Shown here: positions 27,439-48,426 of the stretch, piece after piece
Layout of the letters: each line of letters begins with the position of its first letter
How positions within the stretch are numbered: the first letter of the stretch is position 1
Assembly (NCBI GenBank): GCA_900541985.1
Contig: UQLX01000001.1
Span: 61,046-125,045, forward strand
Direction: 5' to 3'
DNA length: 64,000 bases
DNA from: an uncultured Blautia sp.
GTDB taxonomy: Bacteria; Bacillota; Clostridia; Lachnospirales; Lachnospiraceae
Program-made: the position numbers and the translations under genes
The notes under the pieces: model-generated
Databases searched by the model: none
Seen by the model: only the letters and a program-made list of their open reading frames with translations
Told to the model about the DNA's origin: nothing

Positions 27439-30089
27439 GAAATAACAATCAGAAGGTCGTCAGCCGTCTTTCCGGAAGAAGCCTGAAAAACAATAAAATG
27501 AGGAACAGCTTTGTCATCGCTGCAATTGCTCTGACCTGTATGATGTTTACGGCTCTTGCTGCCTTGGGAATGGGGATTTCAGATGCCATGCAGGAAACTA
27601 CCATGCGGGAAGTAGGCGGTCGTTTTCATGCCGGACTGAAGGGTGTGACTGAGGAGCAGATGAACCAGGTGACAGCGGATAAACGGGTAAAGGATTATTC
27701 ATGGAACGTTTTTTTGGGTATGGCGGAGAACGTCGTAAAGAGACAGTATGAAATCCGTCTGGCACAGGGAGAAAAGGAACTGGAAAATTCTTTTATTGAA
27801 CTGGAAGAAGGCGGTTTTCCGGAAAAAATGGACGATATCATTGTGGACACCTATCTTCTGGATGAAATGAAGCTTCCCTGTGAATTGGGGACTGACATTC
27901 CTCTGGATTTTACTTTTCATGGGCAGAAGGTCAGCAAAACCTTCCGGGTATGCGGCTGGTATGAAGGAAATAAGCTTGGCCATGCCTCAGAGCTTTATAT
28001 TTCAGAAGCTTTCTGGAAAAATTTAAAAGGAACGATTACCGACCAGGAGTTGAAAGAGTGGGGTAAGACACATCCCCAGGACTCCGGTGCAGGTCTTTAT
28101 TCTGTAGGTCTGTATTTTGACAGCCCTGCAGAAAGTGAGGATGCAGTACGAGCCATTATCCGGGATGCCGGTTATTATCCGGATGGAGAAGCAGAAGGAT
28201 ATAAACCGGAGGAATCCATTGATTATGGAGTTAACTGGGCATATATGGAGAATCGTGCAGAAAATGCAGATCCTCTGATGCTGGCAATTCTGAGTCTGGT
28301 TTTCCTGGCAATCCTGCTTACCGGTTATCTGATCATTTACAATATCTTTTATATTTCAGTGGTTCAGGATATCCGTTTTTATGGTCTTTTAAAAACAGTG
28401 GGAACCACAAAAAAACAGATCAGATCCATAATCCGCCGTCAGGCGCTGGTTTTATCGATTGTAGGGATTCCCATTGGTCTGGCAGCAGGATATGGAGTGT
28501 CTGAACTGCTTTTCCCCTTTGTTATGGAGATCACTTCCTATACAGATCTGGGGATCAGCCTGAAAATTCGCCCGCAGGTAGCTGTATTCGGAATCGTTTT
28601 TGCTCTTCTGACCGTTTTCATCAGCTGCCGGAAACCCGGAAAAATTGCCGGAAGCGTATCTCCGGTGGAGGCGATCCGGTATACAGAGGGAAAAGGCAGC
28701 CGTAAAAAAAGAAAGAAATCCGAAAACGGCGCGCGGATTCACCGGATGGCTTTGTCAAATCTGGGAAGGAATAAGAAAAAAACAACGCTGGTACTGGTAT
28801 CTCTTTCTATGAGTATGATACTTTTATGCATCGTGCTTACAGGCGTAGGAAGCTTTCGGGTAGACGCCTATCTGGAACAGCGTCTTCTTGGCGACGTACT
28901 TCTGGCATCGGTAAACCTGACCGGAAGCAGTGCGGTAAGAGTGGCAGATTACCAGATAGATGAAGAATATGTGAAGCTGGCAGACGCACAGCCGGGAGTC
29001 ACGGCGAAAAATGAGCTCTGGCAGATTTACAATAATGTGTCGCTTTTTACAGATGATACCGCAATGGAAAGATATCAGAGGTTTCAGGATCAGGGGCTTC
29101 TGCGGCAGGATGATTTTTCCTCCTCGATCATAGATGATGTGAAAAATCGAAGACAGCTGGAAGCCCGTACTTATGGCTATGACGAAGCTGTTCTTTCCAA
29201 ACTGACGGTTCTGGACGGTCAGCTGGACCTGGAAAAATTTGTTCAGGGAGGCTATATTCTTCTGACAGACATTATCGGCGATCATACGGAAGGCGCCAGT
29301 ATTTATAAGCCAGGGGAAAAGGTAAAGCTGCTTGTTCCTACCGAGGAGTCGGAGATTATCGAGGATAAAGACGAAAAAGGAGAAATCACTGGCCATCACT
29401 GGGAAAACCTGGGAGAAACAGAGTACGAGGTCATGGCCATTGTGGATATTCCCGGCAGTATGACAGACATGACTTATCCGGTAAACGGCGTACAGGCGGT
29501 GATCCCCAGACAGGATGTGGAACAGGCTATGGGCAGCTGGTGCTTTGGTATTTCCTACGAGGTGGAGGAGGAATATCTTGACAGCTTTATACAGACGGTA
29601 AAGGATTATTCGGAAAACGTAAACAAAGAAATGGGATATCTTTCCAAGGACGAACTGGTGGAAGGTTTCCAGACCATGAACAGTTCTATTCGCATGATCG
29701 GTATTGCTTTAAGTGCGGTGATTGCGTTCGTGGGAATCCTGAATTTTATCAATTCTATTATTACCGGCATCATTGCCAGAAAAAGAGAATTTGCCATCCT
29801 TTGCAGTATTGGAATGACAGAGCAGCAGCTAAAGAGGATGCTTCTGGAAGAAAGTATGTATTATGTGCTGATATCAGGGGGCATCAGCCTGATTCTTGGC
29901 ACGGCACTTTCACGGATCATAATGACGGCATTGAACAATGTGATCCTGTTCTTTGCCTACCGCCCGAACTTCCAGACATTTGTCATTATGCTGCCGATAC
30001 TGGCGGTTCTTGCTGTGCTGGTGCCCTCACTGGCATATCAGAGGATGAAAAAAGAAAGTATCGTAGAGCGGCTGAGGAATACAGAGTAA
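27435..30089 (+). CDS. FtsX-family ABC transporter permease (duplicated FtsX module, 884 aa)
   Basis: Two TM-plus-large-extracytoplasmic-domain-plus-3-TM units. 'YGLLKTVGTTKKQI' and 'FAILCSIGMTEQQL' are FtsX signature loops. Confidence 0.85.
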   Translation: MRNNNQKVVSRLSGRSLKNNKMRNSFVIAAIALTCMMFTALAALGMGISDAMQETTMREVGGRFHAGLKGVTEEQMNQVTADKRVKDYSWNVFLGMAENVVKRQYEIRLAQGEKELENSFIELEEGGFPEKMDDIIVDTYLLDEMKLPCELGTDIPLDFTFHGQKVSKTFRVCGWYEGNKLGHASELYISEAFWKNLKGTITDQELKEWGKTHPQDSGAGLYSVGLYFDSPAESEDAVRAIIRDAGYYPDGEAEGYKPEESIDYGVNWAYMENRAENADPLMLAILSLVFLAILLTGYLIIYNIFYISVVQDIRFYGLLKTVGTTKKQIRSIIRRQALVLSIVGIPIGLAAGYGVSELLFPFVMEITSYTDLGISLKIRPQVAVFGIVFALLTVFISCRKPGKIAGSVSPVEAIRYTEGKGSRKKRKKSENGARIHRMALSNLGRNKKKTTLVLVSLSMSMILLCIVLTGVGSFRVDAYLEQRLLGDVLLASVNLTGSSAVRVADYQIDEEYVKLADAQPGVTAKNELWQIYNNVSLFTDDTAMERYQRFQDQGLLRQDDFSSSIIDDVKNRRQLEARTYGYDEAVLSKLTVLDGQLDLEKFVQGGYILLTDIIGDHTEGASIYKPGEKVKLLVPTEESEIIEDKDEKGEITGHHWENLGETEYEVMAIVDIPGSMTDMTYPVNGVQAVIPRQDVEQAMGSWCFGISYEVEEEYLDSFIQTVKDYSENVNKEMGYLSKDELVEGFQTMNSSIRMIGIALSAVIAFVGILNFINSIITGIIARKREFAILCSIGMTEQQLKRMLLEESMYYVLISGGISLILGTALSRIIMTALNNVILFFAYRPNFQTFVIMLPILAVLAVLVPSLAYQRMKKESIVERLRNTE

Positions 30090-30300
30090 AATTTCTGTTT
30101 GTTGTTTTCCACAGACGATGCATATGAAAAAAGGCAGATCATGTGCAGTGCTGCGCCCTGCGCTCTTCCGTCCGGGAACATAACATATAGAAGGAATATA
30201 AATTTGCTGTCTGGAAAATGTAATGCAGGATCAAAGAAATCTGATTCAGAAGCCTTGAGAGATTTGGTCAAAAGTTCTTGTCTTCTGCGACTTTGCTTTG

Positions 30301-30352
30301 CTTCCTCTGATGCTGCTGTCTGAGTCGAAGACGAGTTCTGCATCAGAGGAAG
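30301..30352. repeat. perfect 13-bp inverted repeat with a 26-nt spacer
   Basis: CTTCCTCTGATGC (30301-30313) / GCATCAGAGGAAG (30340-30352). An outer CTTTGC/GCAAAG pair adds to it. Confidence 0.7.
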
Positions 30353-30495
30353 TGTATTTTGCAAAGAAGCAGAAACATAGAACTTTCCAAATCGCGAACC
30401 AGCGTCTGTGGCAGATTTCTCTGATCCTGCATATCCTTTACAGGCAAAAAATAATATTCCGCCCCACCCTCACAAACACAAAGTTATTTTACAGA

Positions 30496-30523
30496 TTGAC
30501 ATATCTTCTCCACGGGTTACAAT
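30496..30523 (+). promoter_or_regulatory. near-consensus sigma-70 promoter for the ATPase-Toprim gene
   Basis: TTGACA (30496-30501), a 16-nt spacer, then TACAAT (30518-30523). It lies about 88 nt upstream of the ATG at 30611. Confidence 0.6.
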
Positions 30524-30610
30524 GAAAGAAAACATAGAAAGTAAAGAACTGATCGTAACTGTGAAGGTGCTGGAAGATCACAGGGAACTGATCCGGGGGA
30601 GGTGTATGTT

Positions 30611-32461
30611 ATGCAGATCACAGACCTGCAGATTCGGAATTTCAAATCCATAAAAAATATTCATATTTCGGATATTGAGAGTGCGTTGATTCTGGTGGGG
30701 CAGAACAACACAGGGAAGACAGCGGTTCTGGATGCCATTCGGGCAGTCAGCGGCGATTATCAGATCTGTCTGGAGGATTTTCTGGAAGATTTTCCCAATA
30801 TTGAGATCGGGGTCAGACTTCGGATCACAGAAGAGGATCTTTCCCGGATGCAGGAAAAACGGATCATCAGTCCCTATCGGAACTATACGGCCTGGTATCA
30901 GGATTTTTGCCGGAAGCTTCCCTCCTATCAGGACGGGATACTTACTTTTGAGTTTGTGGCAAACAAAGAGGGACGGATCCGCTACAGTGACGGCTATCAG
31001 AAAAACAACAGTCATATCCCCGAGATCTTTCCAAAGGTGTATTATATCGGAGCCCAGAGAAAGATGGATTTTCTCCAGGAGAATATTTTGCTCCTTCAGG
31101 AGGATGAGCTTCTGAAACAGATGCGTTCCGACTGCTGTATGTTTGACCGGGCCAAAAAATGCACTCACTGTTTTTCCTGCATTGGATATCTGAACCAGAA
31201 AACTACAGAAGAACTGAATGCCTTTGAGACTGCCAAGCTTCTGGACTATAAACTGTATCAGCTGAACCTGGATGATTTTTCACGGCGGGTTAATGAAAAT
31301 TTCCGGAAAAACGGAGGAAAAGAGCAGATCTTTTATTCCATGAATCGTGATATTGAAAAAATGCTTTCCGTAACGGCAGAGGTCTATGATGAAAAACAGG
31401 AAAAATATAAACCGATCAGCTGTCTGGGAAAAGGTATGAGAAGTATCTATATGCTGTCTCTTCTGGAAACCTGTGAGGAAACAGGAGATGACGCGGCGGA
31501 TCTGATCATTGTGGAGAATCCGGAAATATTTCTTCATCCCAGATTGCAGAAAGTATCCGGAGATATTCTGTACCGTCTTTGCAGATCAGGACAGGTGATC
31601 TTTTCTACCCATTCTGCAAATCTCCTTTCCAACTTTAACAGCAGACAGATCCGTCAGATGGTTCAGGGAGAAGACGGGTATGCAAAAATATGTGAGAAAA
31701 CAGACATCAGCGCGGTTCTTGATGATCTGGGATACTCTGCCGGAGATCTGATGAATGTAAACTTTGTATTCATTGTGGAAGGAAAGCAGGATAAAACAAG
31801 ACTGCCCCTTCTTTTGAAAAAATATTATTCGGAGCTTCATGACGAGGAGGGGAATCTTCAGAGAATCGCTATTATTACAACAAACAGCTGTACCAATATC
31901 AAAACCTATGCGAATCTGAAGTATATGAATCAGATATACCTGAAAGATAATTTTCTGATGATCCGGGATGGAGACGGCAAAGACAGAGAAATGCTCCAGC
32001 GTCAGCTGTGTAAATACTATGAAGACAGAAATCTGGAGGATATAGACAGGCTTCCCAGAGTTATGCCAAGGAATGTGCTGATCCTGAAATATTATTCCTT
32101 TGAAAATTATTTTTTTAATCCAAAGGTTATGGCGCAGCTTGGAGTTATCAGTTCCGAAGAGGAATTTTATGAGATCTTTCTGGAGAAATGGAAGGAGTAT
32201 CTCCACAGGATCAAAAGTGGAAAAAATCTCAGGGAGGTACTGGGTAAGGATCTGGAAACCATAGAAGATGTAAAAGCGCATATGGAGGAGATCAGGATTT
32301 ACATGAGAGGGCATAACCTTTATGATATCTTTTACGGAAGGTATAAAAAAGAAGAAACAGAACTCCTGACCCGGTATATCGAAATCGCTCCAAGGGAGGA
32401 TTTCAGGGATATTCTTGACGCGGTAGATCAGTTTATTTACTTTGAAAACAGAAAAAAATAA
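30611..32461 (+). CDS. ABC-type ATPase fused to a Toprim/DUF4435-like nuclease domain (OLD-family or merged PARIS AriA-AriB-like)
   Basis: The ATG at 30611 lies 8 nt after GGGGGAGG. 'LQIRNFKSIK', Walker A 'GQNNTGKT', 'LIIVENPEIFLHP', 'FSTHS'. C-terminal 'FVFIVEGKQD', 'IRDGDGKD', 'YSFENYF'. Confidence 0.75.
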   Translation: MQITDLQIRNFKSIKNIHISDIESALILVGQNNTGKTAVLDAIRAVSGDYQICLEDFLEDFPNIEIGVRLRITEEDLSRMQEKRIISPYRNYTAWYQDFCRKLPSYQDGILTFEFVANKEGRIRYSDGYQKNNSHIPEIFPKVYYIGAQRKMDFLQENILLLQEDELLKQMRSDCCMFDRAKKCTHCFSCIGYLNQKTTEELNAFETAKLLDYKLYQLNLDDFSRRVNENFRKNGGKEQIFYSMNRDIEKMLSVTAEVYDEKQEKYKPISCLGKGMRSIYMLSLLETCEETGDDAADLIIVENPEIFLHPRLQKVSGDILYRLCRSGQVIFSTHSANLLSNFNSRQIRQMVQGEDGYAKICEKTDISAVLDDLGYSAGDLMNVNFVFIVEGKQDKTRLPLLLKKYYSELHDEEGNLQRIAIITTNSCTNIKTYANLKYMNQIYLKDNFLMIRDGDGKDREMLQRQLCKYYEDRNLEDIDRLPRVMPRNVLILKYYSFENYFFNPKVMAQLGVISSEEEFYEIFLEKWKEYLHRIKSGKNLREVLGKDLETIEDVKAHMEEIRIYMRGHNLYDIFYGRYKKEETELLTRYIEIAPREDFRDILDAVDQFIYFENRKK

Positions 32462-32473
32462 AAGGAGGACGGC

Positions 32474-32632
32474 TTGCTTTATGATGGAGCAACATATCTG
32501 GGAAATCAATTAGAATGTGAATTTGATTGTAGCAGATGTTTCGGGATTGCTGCTAATATGGAATTCATTCTTATCAGTACCTATGAACAAAATGGTACAA
32601 ATCCGGAACTGGTTATTTACAGGAAAAGATAA
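32474..32632 (+). CDS. possible 52-aa ORF (TTG start) immediately downstream of, and in frame with, the ATPase-Toprim gene
   Basis: AGGAGG (32463-32468) lies 5 nt before the TTG. The translation is 'LLYDGATYLGNQLECEFDCSRCFGIAANMEFILISTYEQNGTNPELVIYRKR'. It is below the ORF-track size cut-off. Confidence 0.25.
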   Translation: MLYDGATYLGNQLECEFDCSRCFGIAANMEFILISTYEQNGTNPELVIYRKR

Positions 32633-32822
32633 TCTTCTCTTTGCATCTGAAAGTGGATAGCAGCCAAACAGAAATTTTTACATTTGGGAAGGATGTTTGA
32701 TATAAATTTAACATAACCGGGCAAGTGCATTTAATCATGTATTGATAAGCTGTGTTCTGTCGGGGAGAAGTGATTCCTGACGCAGATTACAAAGTATTGA
32801 CCGTGAAAAAGGAGAACAATCT

Positions 32823-34385
32823 ATGAACGCGAAAAAAATCAGTGCATTATTACTTGCGGCAGCAATGATGGTACCGTGTGCAGTTCCGGTCCGGGTACTG
32901 GCGGCAGGGGAGGCCGGGCAGGAAGCTTCTCAGGAAACAGAAGCAAAGACACCAAAATATATTTTTCTTTTTATTGGAGATGGAATGAGCTATCCTCAGA
33001 TTCAGACTACCAATTATTATCTGAATGCCATAGAGGATGACGGAGACGATATTCTTACAAGTGAGAGCAGACTGAACATGATGAAGTTTCCGGTAGCAGG
33101 ATCTGCCCAGACCTATGACAGCACTTCCTTCTGTCCGGATTCTGCATCTACTGCCACCTCTATTTCAACCGGTCATAAGACCTACAGCGGAACCATCAAC
33201 ATGGATGAAAAGATGGAAACCGCATATGAGACTATTGCAGAAAAACTGAAAAAACAGCTTGGCTACAAGGTGGGGATTCTTTCTACTGTGAATCTGAACC
33301 ATGCGACTCCGGCAGCTTTTTATGCACATCAGGCATCCAGAAACAGTTACTATGAGATCGGTCAGGAAATGATCGCCAGTGAGTTTGATTATTTTGCAGG
33401 AGGCGGTCTGAAGAAAACCACAGGTGACGAAGGTGATAAGACAGATCTTTACCAGCTGGCGCAGGAGGCAGGCTATAAGGTTGTCAAAACACAGGAAGAA
33501 GCAGAAGCGCTGACTGCGGAAGACGGAAAGACGATCGTGATTGATGAGACTCTGGCAGATGACGATGCCATGAGCTATGATATGGATCGGGAAGAAGGAG
33601 AATGGGGACTTGCCGATTATGTGGAAAAGGGAATCGAGGTTCTGAATAACGATACAGGATTCTTTATGATGGTAGAAGGCGGCAAGATTGACTGGGCATG
33701 TCATGCAAATGATGCAGCTGCCACAATTACAGATACGGTTGCCATGGATCAGGCGGTAGGAAAGGCTGTGGAGTTTTATAATAAGCATCCGGACGAGACG
33801 TTGATTCTTGTTACAGGAGACCATGAGACGGGTGGTCTGACGATTGGATTTGCCGGAACGGATTACGATACTTTTCTGGAAAATATCAGCAATCAGAAAA
33901 TTTCCTATGCAAAATTTGATTCAGATTATGTAGCCGGATACAAAGAAAATAAAACGGATTTTGACACAGTTATGGCAGATATTACAGAGCTTTTTGGACT
34001 GGAGGCTCCATCCGGAGAGTCAGAGACAACCAATCAGGCAGACGGCAAGGATGTACATCCGGAAGGAGAAGAAGGCGGTTCTCTGGTTATGACGGATTAT
34101 GAATACAACAAACTGAAAGCTGCTTATGAGGAAACTATGAGCCGGACCGGTGAGGAGGAAGCGTTTGGACAGGAGGAATATCTCCTCTATGGAAGCTATG
34201 AGCCTCTGACTGTGACCATCACTCATATTCTGAACAACAAATCCGGTATTAACTTTGCATCCTATGCCCATACAGGACTTCCGGTAGAGGTGTTTGCAAT
34301 GGGCGCTGAGCAGGAACAGTTTGAGGGATATTATGATAATACGGATATTTATAACAAACTGGCTGCCATCACAGGAGTGCAGTAA
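32823..34385 (+). CDS. alkaline phosphatase (PhoA family), secreted
   Basis: Signal peptide; 'FIGDGMSYPQ'; the active-site region 'DSASTATSISTGHKT'; 'TGDHETGG'. Confidence 0.85.
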   Translation: MNAKKISALLLAAAMMVPCAVPVRVLAAGEAGQEASQETEAKTPKYIFLFIGDGMSYPQIQTTNYYLNAIEDDGDDILTSESRLNMMKFPVAGSAQTYDSTSFCPDSASTATSISTGHKTYSGTINMDEKMETAYETIAEKLKKQLGYKVGILSTVNLNHATPAAFYAHQASRNSYYEIGQEMIASEFDYFAGGGLKKTTGDEGDKTDLYQLAQEAGYKVVKTQEEAEALTAEDGKTIVIDETLADDDAMSYDMDREEGEWGLADYVEKGIEVLNNDTGFFMMVEGGKIDWACHANDAAATITDTVAMDQAVGKAVEFYNKHPDETLILVTGDHETGGLTIGFAGTDYDTFLENISNQKISYAKFDSDYVAGYKENKTDFDTVMADITELFGLEAPSGESETTNQADGKDVHPEGEEGGSLVMTDYEYNKLKAAYEETMSRTGEEEAFGQEEYLLYGSYEPLTVTITHILNNKSGINFASYAHTGLPVEVFAMGAEQEQFEGYYDNTDIYNKLAAITGVQ

Positions 34386-47067: not shown

Positions 47068-47202
47068 TTTGCAGGAATTTACCCTTGGAAATCATAAAAT
47101 ATTATGTTAATCTGTGAGCAGATATCAGACAGTATATGACTGATACCGTCAGGACAAAAATCATTCCGAATAACGAAAAATAAAGTGAAAGGAATGATTG
47201 AT

Positions 47203-48426
47203 ATGGCAAGAAAAGATAATAAAGGCAGAAATTTAAAAACAGGTGAATATCAGCGTCCGGATGGACGTTATGAGTATCGCTACAAGGATGAAATTACCGG
47301 AAAACGTAATTCGGTTTATGCAGCTGATCTGGCGAGTCTGCGAGAAATGGAAAAGAAGATCAATAAGGATATGGATGATCTGCTTATTACAGATTCATCA
47401 GTCAAGAAGCTGACCGTAAATACGTTGTTTGAGCGATACATGGCAACAAAGAATATCAAGGAAAGAACGAAAAAGAATTATATACGTATGTGGGATTATC
47501 GGATACGAAATACTTTGGGAAATATTCGTGTTTTGGATTTTAAGACATCTCACGTAAGAACGTTCTTTTCCGCATTGTCAGATGAAGGACTGGCACACAG
47601 TACAATCAAAGGTCTTTATGGCTTATTGAATCCCAGTTTTGAACTGGCAGTGGAAGATGGGATTATCCGCAAGAATCCGGTAACAGGAACACTTGGAGAT
47701 TATGGGACTCCGGCAAAGGAGAAAGAAGCACTGACGCTGGAGCAGCAGGAAAAACTTCTGAAGTTTGTGGAACAGAGTAATGTGTATAAGCCTCATCTTC
47801 CAATGATGCAGGTTATGTTTGGGGCTTGCCTGAGAGTGAGTGAAACCATCGGATTAACCTGGTCAGATGTGGATATGAAGAATCGGGAGATTCATGTAGG
47901 TGGACAGCTTGTGTATTATGAAGGTGATGAAGGATATTGTTTCCATGATTCAGAAACCAAAACGGATGCAGGAATCAGAAATATTCCTATGACACAGATG
48001 GTATATGATGCGTTCCGTAAGCAGAGAGAACTGAACCTAATGCTTGGTTTACAGAGTAATGTAGAGATAGGTGGACGCAGTGGATTCATCTTCAATACAA
48101 AGCATGGACGTCCGATTATGCCGGCGGGAGTGAACAGCTTTCTGAAAAACATTGTTAATGCCTATAATAAGAAAGAAAGCAAACTGGCAGAAGAAGAGAA
48201 GCGAGAGCCGGAGCTGATGCCGCCCATTTCATCGCATACCCTTCGTCATACGGGATGTACCAGATTGGGTGAGAACAATGTCAATCCCAAAGTTATGCAG
48301 TATGTGATGGGTCACTCAGATGCACAGATCACAATGAATGTCTACAATCATATTGCAGAGAAGTCTCACGTGGAGAATGAGATGTCTAAAATGAACCTGC
48401 CGGAAACTGTACCTGCTGTGGTATAA
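47203..48426 (+). mobile_element. int: tyrosine site-specific recombinase (phage/ICE integrase family)
   Basis: N-terminal arm-binding 'ARKDNKGRNLKTGEYQRPDGRYEYRY'. Catalytic 'LRVSET' (Arg), 'HTLRHTG' (HxxR), 'GHSD...NVYNH' (His, Tyr). Confidence 0.9.

Follow-up and report, generated by a model that had tools for sequence, protein, structure and literature searches.

Class 1 single-gene OLD proteins are the least understood branch of the family that also underlies Gabija, some retrons, and PARIS. Among them are phage P2 Old, the OLD protein of Thermus scotoductus (PDB 6p74), Vibrio cholerae OLD (Vc OLD), and Escherichia coli YbjD (OldB), each encoded by an isolated gene and each joining an ABC ATPase to a Toprim nuclease in one chain. 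Classes are defined by genomic context, and whether Class 1 proteins defend alone is a listed open question (PMC10568477). Single-gene OLD proteins (P2 Old, Vc OLD, YbjD) defend or give anti-phage phenotypes (PMC10568477, PMC12392090, PMC13261556), and DefenseFinder reports Class 1 OLD in ~0.45% of genomes (PMC12392090). Here we analyze an OLD-family gene at positions 30611–32461 of a 64,000-nucleotide (nt) stretch of DNA from an uncultured Blautia sp. (contig UQLX01000001.1; hereafter the window). A preliminary description, made from the letters of the window, had proposed a candidate anti-phage system, either a Class 1 OLD or a merged PARIS-like protein, inserted among transporter and phosphatase genes.

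The window protein resembles the Class 1 proteins in its isolated gene and single-chain architecture, and it has an Arg at the Q-loop position, as do many of them (PMC7049728). Like E. coli YbjD, it is encoded by a stable chromosomal gene rather than carried as mobile-element cargo. It differs from the P2-Old type in its Toprim sequence, which is weakly similar, and from Thermus OLD in an additional C-terminal helical domain of ~110 amino acids (aa); its SxENYFFNP, RGH, and four-cysteine motifs are absent from the seven P2-Old-like proteins examined. It is also vertically conserved across a bacterial family, unlike the usual Class 1 protein, and its 616 aa fall just outside the 500–600 aa that Patel and Seed give for Class 1 (PMC12392090), the excess being due to the C-terminal helical domain. 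PARIS (AriA/AriB, Class 4) shares with it an AAA_15/21-type ABC ATPase along with a Toprim nuclease, and AriB has in common with it VEGxxD, SxENYFFNP, RGH, and a helical region after the Toprim core. In contrast to PARIS, the window protein is a single polypeptide with no evidence of nuclease release, and neither a satellite nor a prophage carries its gene. The overall fold is the same in Gabija GajA (Class 2) and the retron Eco8 OLD (Class 3), and Class 2 proteins likewise carry a helical domain after the Toprim core, but the window gene adjoins no GajB/UvrD-like helicase, reverse transcriptase, or retron RNA. Finally, Cran1, an archaeal "Class 5" OLD ATPase-nickase of the cell cycle, is a conserved cellular gene, which is how the window gene behaves; this likeness is one of behavior.

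The window protein is almost certainly an OLD-family ATPase-nuclease with intact catalytic machinery, as shown by family searches, structural matches, and conserved ligands. The open reading frame (ORF) had been read correctly, and close homologs are also 616 aa long and begin MQI. Its parts are as follows.

30611–32461, plus strand: coding sequence of the OLD-family ATPase-nuclease, ATG start, 616 codons and stop (ORF call, family searches)
30611–31690, plus strand: N-terminal ABC (SMC/Rad50/RecF-like) ATPase, residues 1 to ~360 (Pfam AAA_15, AAA_21, DUF2813)
31136–31180, plus strand: four-cysteine motif C176-x7-C184-x2-C187-x2-C190 in the ATPase insertion, kept in 93–98% of 92 family members
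31757–32119, plus strand: Toprim nuclease core, residues ~383–503 (ligand conservation, Foldseek, hhalign)
32120–32458, plus strand: C-terminal all-helical domain, residues 504–616, ~110 aa (predicted helices, predicted local distance difference test (pLDDT) 85–94)

Pfam searches with the full-length protein matched AAA_15 (E = 1.6e-22), AAA_21 (E = 5.6e-13), and DUF2813. OLD-like_TOPRIM (PF20469) aligned to residues 386–455 below its cutoff of 23.2 bits (17.3 bits with the full-length protein, 19.0 bits with the C-terminal half), and it matched 9/9 family members (best E = 3e-5). DUF3226 matched 4/9 members (best E = 2.7e-9); nothing was found in the literature on this domain, and no NCBIfam model came close to its cutoff for the window protein. 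Among PADLOC models, Old (PDLC02358) scored best (E = 3.2e-36, 123 bits), with residues 1–435 on model positions 2–432 of 578 (~75% of the model), followed by GajA (PDLC00067, E = 2e-28, residues 246–536, Toprim core included) and AriA (PDLC02979, E = 4.9e-24, 84 bits, residues 1–337, whole model length). Among PDB sequences, the T. scotoductus Class 1 OLD (6p74) matched best, and BLASTP against phage P2 Old gave 24% identity (E = 1e-14) in an alignment that extends through the Toprim VEG motif. A search for homologs of the P2 Old C-terminal region gave three fragments only, and six plasmid Class 1 OLD genes were used instead. Pfam, PADLOC, Foldseek, and hhalign thus agree with the preliminary description that an ATPase and a Toprim in one polypeptide make this an OLD-family architecture; among the profiles it had named, AAA_15 and AAA_21 matched, DUF4435 did not, and the OLD-type Toprim match is subthreshold.

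Such an architecture is already known, and public records name such proteins ATP-dependent or OLD-family nucleases. The nearest public proteins (96–98% identical, 616 aa) are Blautia sequences, such as JCM17039_21190 of B. glucerasea, and carry the name "ATP-dependent nuclease" or "AAA family ATPase." The gene is therefore not a new kind of system; less ordinary are its pairing of an Old-type ATPase with an AriB-like nuclease, its conserved four cysteines, and its conservation by vertical descent across a bacterial family. A search of 1.84 billion cluster representatives with the C-terminal half returned just 267 matches, mostly fragments, and at the level of sequence the subfamily appears narrow and distinct within the OLD family.

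All of the ATPase and Toprim motifs first quoted for the protein are present where they had been placed, and 97% or more of the 92 members keep the motif residues. The ATPase carries LQIRNFKSIK (residues 6–15), Walker A GQNNTGKT (residues 30–37, 30698–30721), YYIGAQRK (residues 144–151) with R150 at the Q-loop position, the signature-like LGKGMRSIYMLSLL (residues 271–284, 31421–31462), the Walker B/D-loop LIIVENPEIFLHP (residues 298–310, 31502–31540), and the H-loop FSTHS (residues 331–335, 31601–31615); the Walker A Lys (K36), E302/E305, and H334 all reach that level of conservation. The Toprim core contains FVFIVEGKQD with E390 (31778–31780), IRDGDGKD with D453-G-D455 (31967–31975), and YSFENYF with E498-N-Y (32102–32110), together with an invariant S426-C427-x-N429. 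Its predicted metal-A ligands (E390 and D453/D455) and metal-B ligands (D394, 31790–31792, and S496/E498, 32096–32104) are invariant or nearly so, and the six match one for one the six metal ligands of Thermus OLD, where mutagenesis concerned metal-A E377/D431/D433 and metal-B D381/S478/E480; the roles given here to ATPase and Toprim residues are transferred from that work (PMC7049728). Within the C-terminal helical domain lies an RGH motif (R566-G567-H568, 32306–32314), in which G567 and H568 are invariant; R566 is shared by 97% or more of the members, and a few distant proteins have Lys instead.

An AlphaFold2 model of the full-length protein, built from 14 diverse homologs, reached a mean pLDDT of 81, and a separate model of residues 362–616 reached a pLDDT of 80 and a predicted template modeling score of 0.80. 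With the full-length model, Foldseek ranked OLD proteins matched over their full length highest (GajA, Thermus OLD 6p74, and retron Eco8 OLD; E from 1e-15 to 1e-13), and these span Classes 1, 2, and 3. Significant matches of the C-terminal model are confined to AriB and the C-terminal regions of Xanthomonas and Burkholderia OLD proteins (E ~1e-3, probability 0.99–1.0; 6njx and 6nk8 at 1.0). The structural comparison that had been proposed for the protein recovered OLD and GajA over the full length and AriB with the C-terminal model, and the C-terminal half does resemble Toprim folds (AriB by profile, E = 8.4e-9; OLD C-terminal regions by Foldseek).

The four cysteines lie in the ATPase insertion domain (residues ~150–270), which forms the dimerization domain in the solved Thermus OLD structure (PMC7049728). 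We predict that they form a structural metal (zinc) site; pLDDT is low to moderate in this region. A variant, C-x2-C-x4/5-C-x2/3-C, occurs in most distant relatives examined, including a phage-borne one, and the motif is absent from two (P0183 and P0197). No CxxC was found in P2 Old, the six plasmid Class 1 OLD proteins, or the two AriA proteins examined.

Isolated and without a conserved partner, the gene belongs to Class 1 under the context-based definition (PMC10568477); by its sequence it represents a distinct subfamily. In the window, the ~13 kb to each side of it contain no helicase, reverse transcriptase, or separate nuclease/AriB gene, and a UvrD-like helicase is not a recurrent neighbor across 80 related loci; window neighbors, Rfam, and these loci together uphold the original statement that such partners are missing. 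A conserved partner gene within 5 kb was also rejected: clustering of 2,232 ORFs from the 80 loci recovered only clade-specific synteny (the cobalamin operon, 22 loci).

An anti-phage role of the abortive infection type is the most likely reading of this gene (probability roughly 0.55–0.6), and it is suggested by membership in the OLD family. From published work on solved and characterized relatives (PMC7049728, PMC11464382, PMC12409363, PMC12392090, PMC12445682), a mechanism can be proposed. The protein would self-associate through its insertion domain, probably stabilized by bound metal, and ATP binding and hydrolysis by paired ABC heads would gate or position the Toprim site, which would cut nucleic acid by two-metal catalysis. 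The substrate may be DNA, nicked as by Vc OLD, GajA, and Cran1, or the tRNA anticodon arm, as for P2 Old and AriB. The AriB-like motifs of the nuclease may slightly favor RNA or tRNA and, with P2 Old reportedly also cutting tRNA, make tRNA a reasonable first guess. The protein would act as a constitutively expressed, infection-triggered effector.

Several observations weigh against this reading. Three concern the class itself, namely the length of 616 aa, the missed OLD-like_TOPRIM gathering threshold, and the PADLOC Old match over ~75% of the model only; the others concern distribution and inheritance. When one genome of each GTDB species was scanned with exact peptide patterns, relatives turned up in at least 287 species genomes. 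The best 80 of the 287 matches are 66–100% identical and all labeled Lachnospiraceae or unclassified Clostridia, and they include Blautia, Sellimonas, Mediterraneibacter, Faecalicatena, Bariatricus, Roseburia, Eisenbergiella, C. symbiosum, and others. A spread this wide, at such identity and over so many genera, is atypical for a defense gene. Immediate neighbors at 78 loci are mostly metabolic genes; ~10/145 are of defense type (GmrSD_N, JetA, NsnA, a Type I S subunit, mad3, DRT), which for its part speaks for a defense ancestry, although the number is a very rough estimate from overlapping family counts not resolved to single proteins. The gene is also nearly absent from mobile-element collections: a phage collection gave one partial match at 24% identity, a plasmid collection gave distant matches except for a 53%-identical copy on a 626-kb replicon of Lachnospira eligens, and 2.9 million viral contigs held two full-length relatives only.

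Inheritance points in the same direction. The order FtsX–OLD–alkaline phosphatase is common to the window and B. caecimuris, and synonymous divergence (dS) of the OLD gene is similar to that of flanking genes in Blautia. An identical alkaline phosphatase gene occurs on 15 contigs, and the OLD gene is present in 7/7 of the distinct neighborhoods shown, with no presence/absence polymorphism among them. In 21–22 Mediterraneibacter-type species the gene lies directly upstream of cbiB-cobD-cobQ-hemC, often with a gene of the metallo-beta-lactamase fold between (L012, L015, L016, L019, L028–L031, L038–L043, L045, L047, L048, L050, L051, L055, L064). Across 21 species its pairwise identities correlate with those of CbiB, CobD, and CobQ (r = 0.66–0.78), and it is as conserved as CobQ (83–84% versus 82%) and more conserved than CbiB or CobD. 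No functional link between the OLD and cobalamin genes is evident. Inheritance is vertical in two independent clades, and the gene is tied neither to a single locus nor to any pathway. The picture of an inserted mobile defense gene has to be given up in view of the synteny, the co-divergence with cobalamin genes, and the near-absence from mobile collections. The preliminary description had also allowed for universal conservation at this locus within a housekeeping pathway; conservation is indeed broad, but it extends over more than one locus and involves no common pathway.

Within Blautia, dS along the locus is uneven when the window is compared with its sister loci L001 and L002; against L001 it is 0.21 for the OLD gene and 0.63–0.83 for the alkaline phosphatase and YibE/F genes. 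This unevenness suggests homologous recombination between close Blautia lineages.

One possibility is that the protein is a domesticated OLD enzyme with a role in genome maintenance or chromosome processing in Lachnospiraceae, nicking or processing host DNA in an ATP-dependent manner like Cran1, rather than an immune effector. We regard this as unlikely but as a serious rival, and much of the evidence above speaks for it: conservation across the family, with a 53%-identical copy even in L. eligens, co-divergence with linked housekeeping genes at the level of CobQ, fixation in the lineage, and essential absence from mobile-element collections. The gene is also under strong purifying selection, with a ratio of nonsynonymous to synonymous divergence (dN/dS) of 0.03–0.05, as low as in flanking genes; it has a strong, constitutive-type promoter; and a 50%-identical relative lies near murD, ftsZ, and dnaJ genes. 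Precedents are Cran1, an OLD protein that is essential and works in the cell cycle (PMC12796447), and, ambiguously, E. coli YbjD (PMC13261556). Against domestication, there is no conserved linkage to replication, repair, or segregation genes across the 80 loci, a minority of neighbors are defense genes, and the scan, which lists the best 80 of 287 matches found via exact peptide patterns, does not establish a "core gene." Further, we know of no bacterial OLD protein yet shown to have a housekeeping role.

Distant relatives also speak against domestication, since those carrying the same signature motifs are phage-borne or lie beside AbiEii. Relatives at 27–32% identity look like classic defense cargo. 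A contig of a Mu-like phage (L103 1–9974; IMG/VR UViG_3300029519_000255) has as its terminal gene a 650-aa relative (29% identical, with the same four-cysteine, Toprim, and RGH motifs), just outside a CI-like repressor (HTH_3 and Peptidase_S24), MuA transposase, a MuB-like ATPase, and GemA; its terminal position resembles that of old in P2. Another relative, 28% identical, lies directly downstream of an AbiEii toxin gene (L097 4667–7632, L098 2398–5363), and its nuclease part scores as Pfam DUF3226. Most likely, an OLD lineage of phages and defense islands became fixed and was then inherited vertically in Lachnospiraceae. The stronger joint claim is improbable: that a phage-derived lineage with a metal-binding four-cysteine knuckle and an AriB-like Toprim/RGH module was domesticated as a near-core, vertically inherited cellular gene and that its role is nonimmune, for example in genome maintenance or RNA processing. 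If true, this lineage would give archaeal Cran1 its first counterpart among bacteria.

Compared with these possibilities, an anti-phage effector remains the preferred reading, and it could in principle take a different form, that of a merged PARIS-type protein (AriAB, Class 4-like). Here, the ATPase would serve as the sensor and keep an AriB-like Toprim tRNase inactive until a phage trigger protein and ATP hydrolysis free or activate the nuclease, whereupon host tRNA would be cut and translation halted. Merged AriAB genes are known (PMC11464382), and the nuclease half of the window protein favors such an arrangement. In profile comparisons (hhalign) it matched the AriB family alignment with a probability of 95.7% (E = 8.4e-9, 105 columns) and the P2-Old-like Toprim with 76.7% (E = 2.1e-5, 68 columns, only as far as the DxD). 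Against the PDB, AriB (8v46, 8ux9) was the sole meaningful match of the C-terminal profile (E = 0.005), in an alignment that takes in VEGxxD and pairs SLENYFFNP of AriB with SFENYFFNP of the window protein. The conserved RGH recurs in the C-terminal helical part of AriB, where the G-H is invariant in 14 aligned sequences and the preceding Arg nearly invariant, but a profile comparison of the tail only was not significant (E = 0.086), so this likeness is a motif-level resemblance. The PADLOC AriA match over the whole model length also fits a merged protein.

Other comparisons lead away from PARIS, and we consider this alternative quite improbable. Seven single-gene OLD proteins of the P2-Old-like kind are far closer to the ATPase half (E = 7.6e-33, 328 columns) than are two AriA proteins of one AriA clade (E = 1e-7, 71 columns), and PADLOC Old outscores AriA (123 versus 84 bits). 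DUF4435 (PF14491), the defining domain of AriB, matched 0/9 C-terminal family sequences at E ≤ 10, a search in which HMMER filters drop most matches weaker than E ~0.1 so that very weak similarity is possible, whereas OLD-like_TOPRIM matched all nine. PADLOC AriB found no match in the window C-terminal half and one distant member only (E = 1.2e-7), and in place of the DxE of AriB the window protein shows the DxD of OLD proteins. AriB and OLD C-terminal regions are not told apart by Foldseek. From the DUF4435 and OLD-like_TOPRIM results and the DxD, the nuclease module appears to lie between the OLD-type Toprim and AriB/DUF4435 in a protein that is not a PARIS member, and the profile homology to AriB signifies relatedness rather than membership. 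The original alternatives of a Class 1 OLD or a merged PARIS-like protein are thus settled in part: context and a P2-Old-like ATPase make it Class 1, with a Toprim profile nearer AriB, and the "DUF4435-like" label for that Toprim holds as profile homology to AriB and fails as a Pfam match.

The remaining explanations can be set aside quickly. A pseudogene or decaying gene is ruled out by the dN/dS and full-length conservation. So is a retron or noncoding RNA partner, given that no retron RNA or msr-msd was found, Rfam (E ≤ 1 over 29500–33500) returning only a chance small-RNA fragment, and that no neighbor has a reverse transcriptase domain.

The surroundings of the gene include the following elements.

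30496–30523, plus strand: promoter of the sigma-70 type, TTGACA-16 nt-TACAAT, 11/12 matches (promoter scan)
30597–30601, plus strand: ribosome-binding site GGAGG, 8 nt 5′ of the ATG, invariant across aligned Blautia loci
32474–32632, plus strand: 3′ remnant, the last 52 codons of a 263-aa HTH_3 and Zn_ribbon_2 gene, not part of the OLD system

Both promoter hexamers are kept in four related Blautia loci, including B. caecimuris, and the gene is monocistronic with its own promoter, as first described. The 5′ untranslated region (UTR) is ~85 nt long and shows no significant RNA structure (fold versus shuffles, z = 0.9). It contains GAACTGATC twice (30546–30554 and 30585–30593, 39 nt apart), partly conserved in sister genomes; a regulatory leader was considered and dropped, since the fold is no better than shuffles and the repeats are poorly conserved. 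The neighbors are indeed transporter and phosphatase genes, with an ABC ATPase and an FtsX permease upstream and an alkaline phosphatase and YibE/F downstream; wider neighbors are transporters, the phosphatase, and two-component systems. What the preliminary description got wrong was to call the gene an insert, given the shared synteny in B. caecimuris and its presence in every distinct neighborhood shown. Between the FtsX gene and the promoter of the OLD gene is a gap of 520 bp, which contains a 12-bp perfect inverted repeat (TTCCTCTGATGC ... GCATCAGAGGAA, 26-nt loop, 30302–30351). A segment absent from L001 is flanked by the direct repeat CTCTGAT(G/C)CTGC, and in B. caecimuris the entire gap measures just ~115 bp.

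Downstream, a 697-bp deletion relative to the sister genome L003 (11849–12721) begins ~20 nt past the OLD stop (junction mapped; window 32462–32632). It took the promoter, start, and 211 codons of the 263-aa gene, which is intact in L003 and L001 and whose Pfam domains were assigned from the intact copy. The 52-codon remnant sits by chance behind AAGGAGG and is called as a gene on most sister contigs shown; this 52-aa ORF with its strong ribosome-binding site was rejected as a partner because it is a remnant of a deleted gene and not a conserved neighbor elsewhere. Two sister Blautia genomes (L001 3163–4452; L002) carry an extra membrane protein of 429 aa between the OLD and alkaline phosphatase genes, positioned after the HTH gene and apparently transporter-like, and both this gene and the HTH gene are missing from B. 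caecimuris. Because both vary among Blautia, the interval 3′ of the OLD gene is a small hotspot of gene gain and loss. Some 15 kb downstream, not adjoining the OLD gene, the window encodes a Tn916-type tyrosine integrase (Phage_integrase and Tn916 Integrase_DNA domains, 47185–48423) followed by large ORFs; the integrase may signal the border of an integrative conjugative element.

The subfamily is abundant in dominant human-gut commensals (Blautia, Mediterraneibacter, Sellimonas). With an Old-type ATPase and an AriB-like nuclease in one chain and an unusual stability in evolution, it is useful for three questions: what distinguishes Toprim effectors that nick DNA from those that cut tRNA, by what means a fused ATPase can control a nuclease that it does not release, and whether an OLD gene conserved on the chromosome belongs to "core" immunity or has been co-opted for a cellular task.

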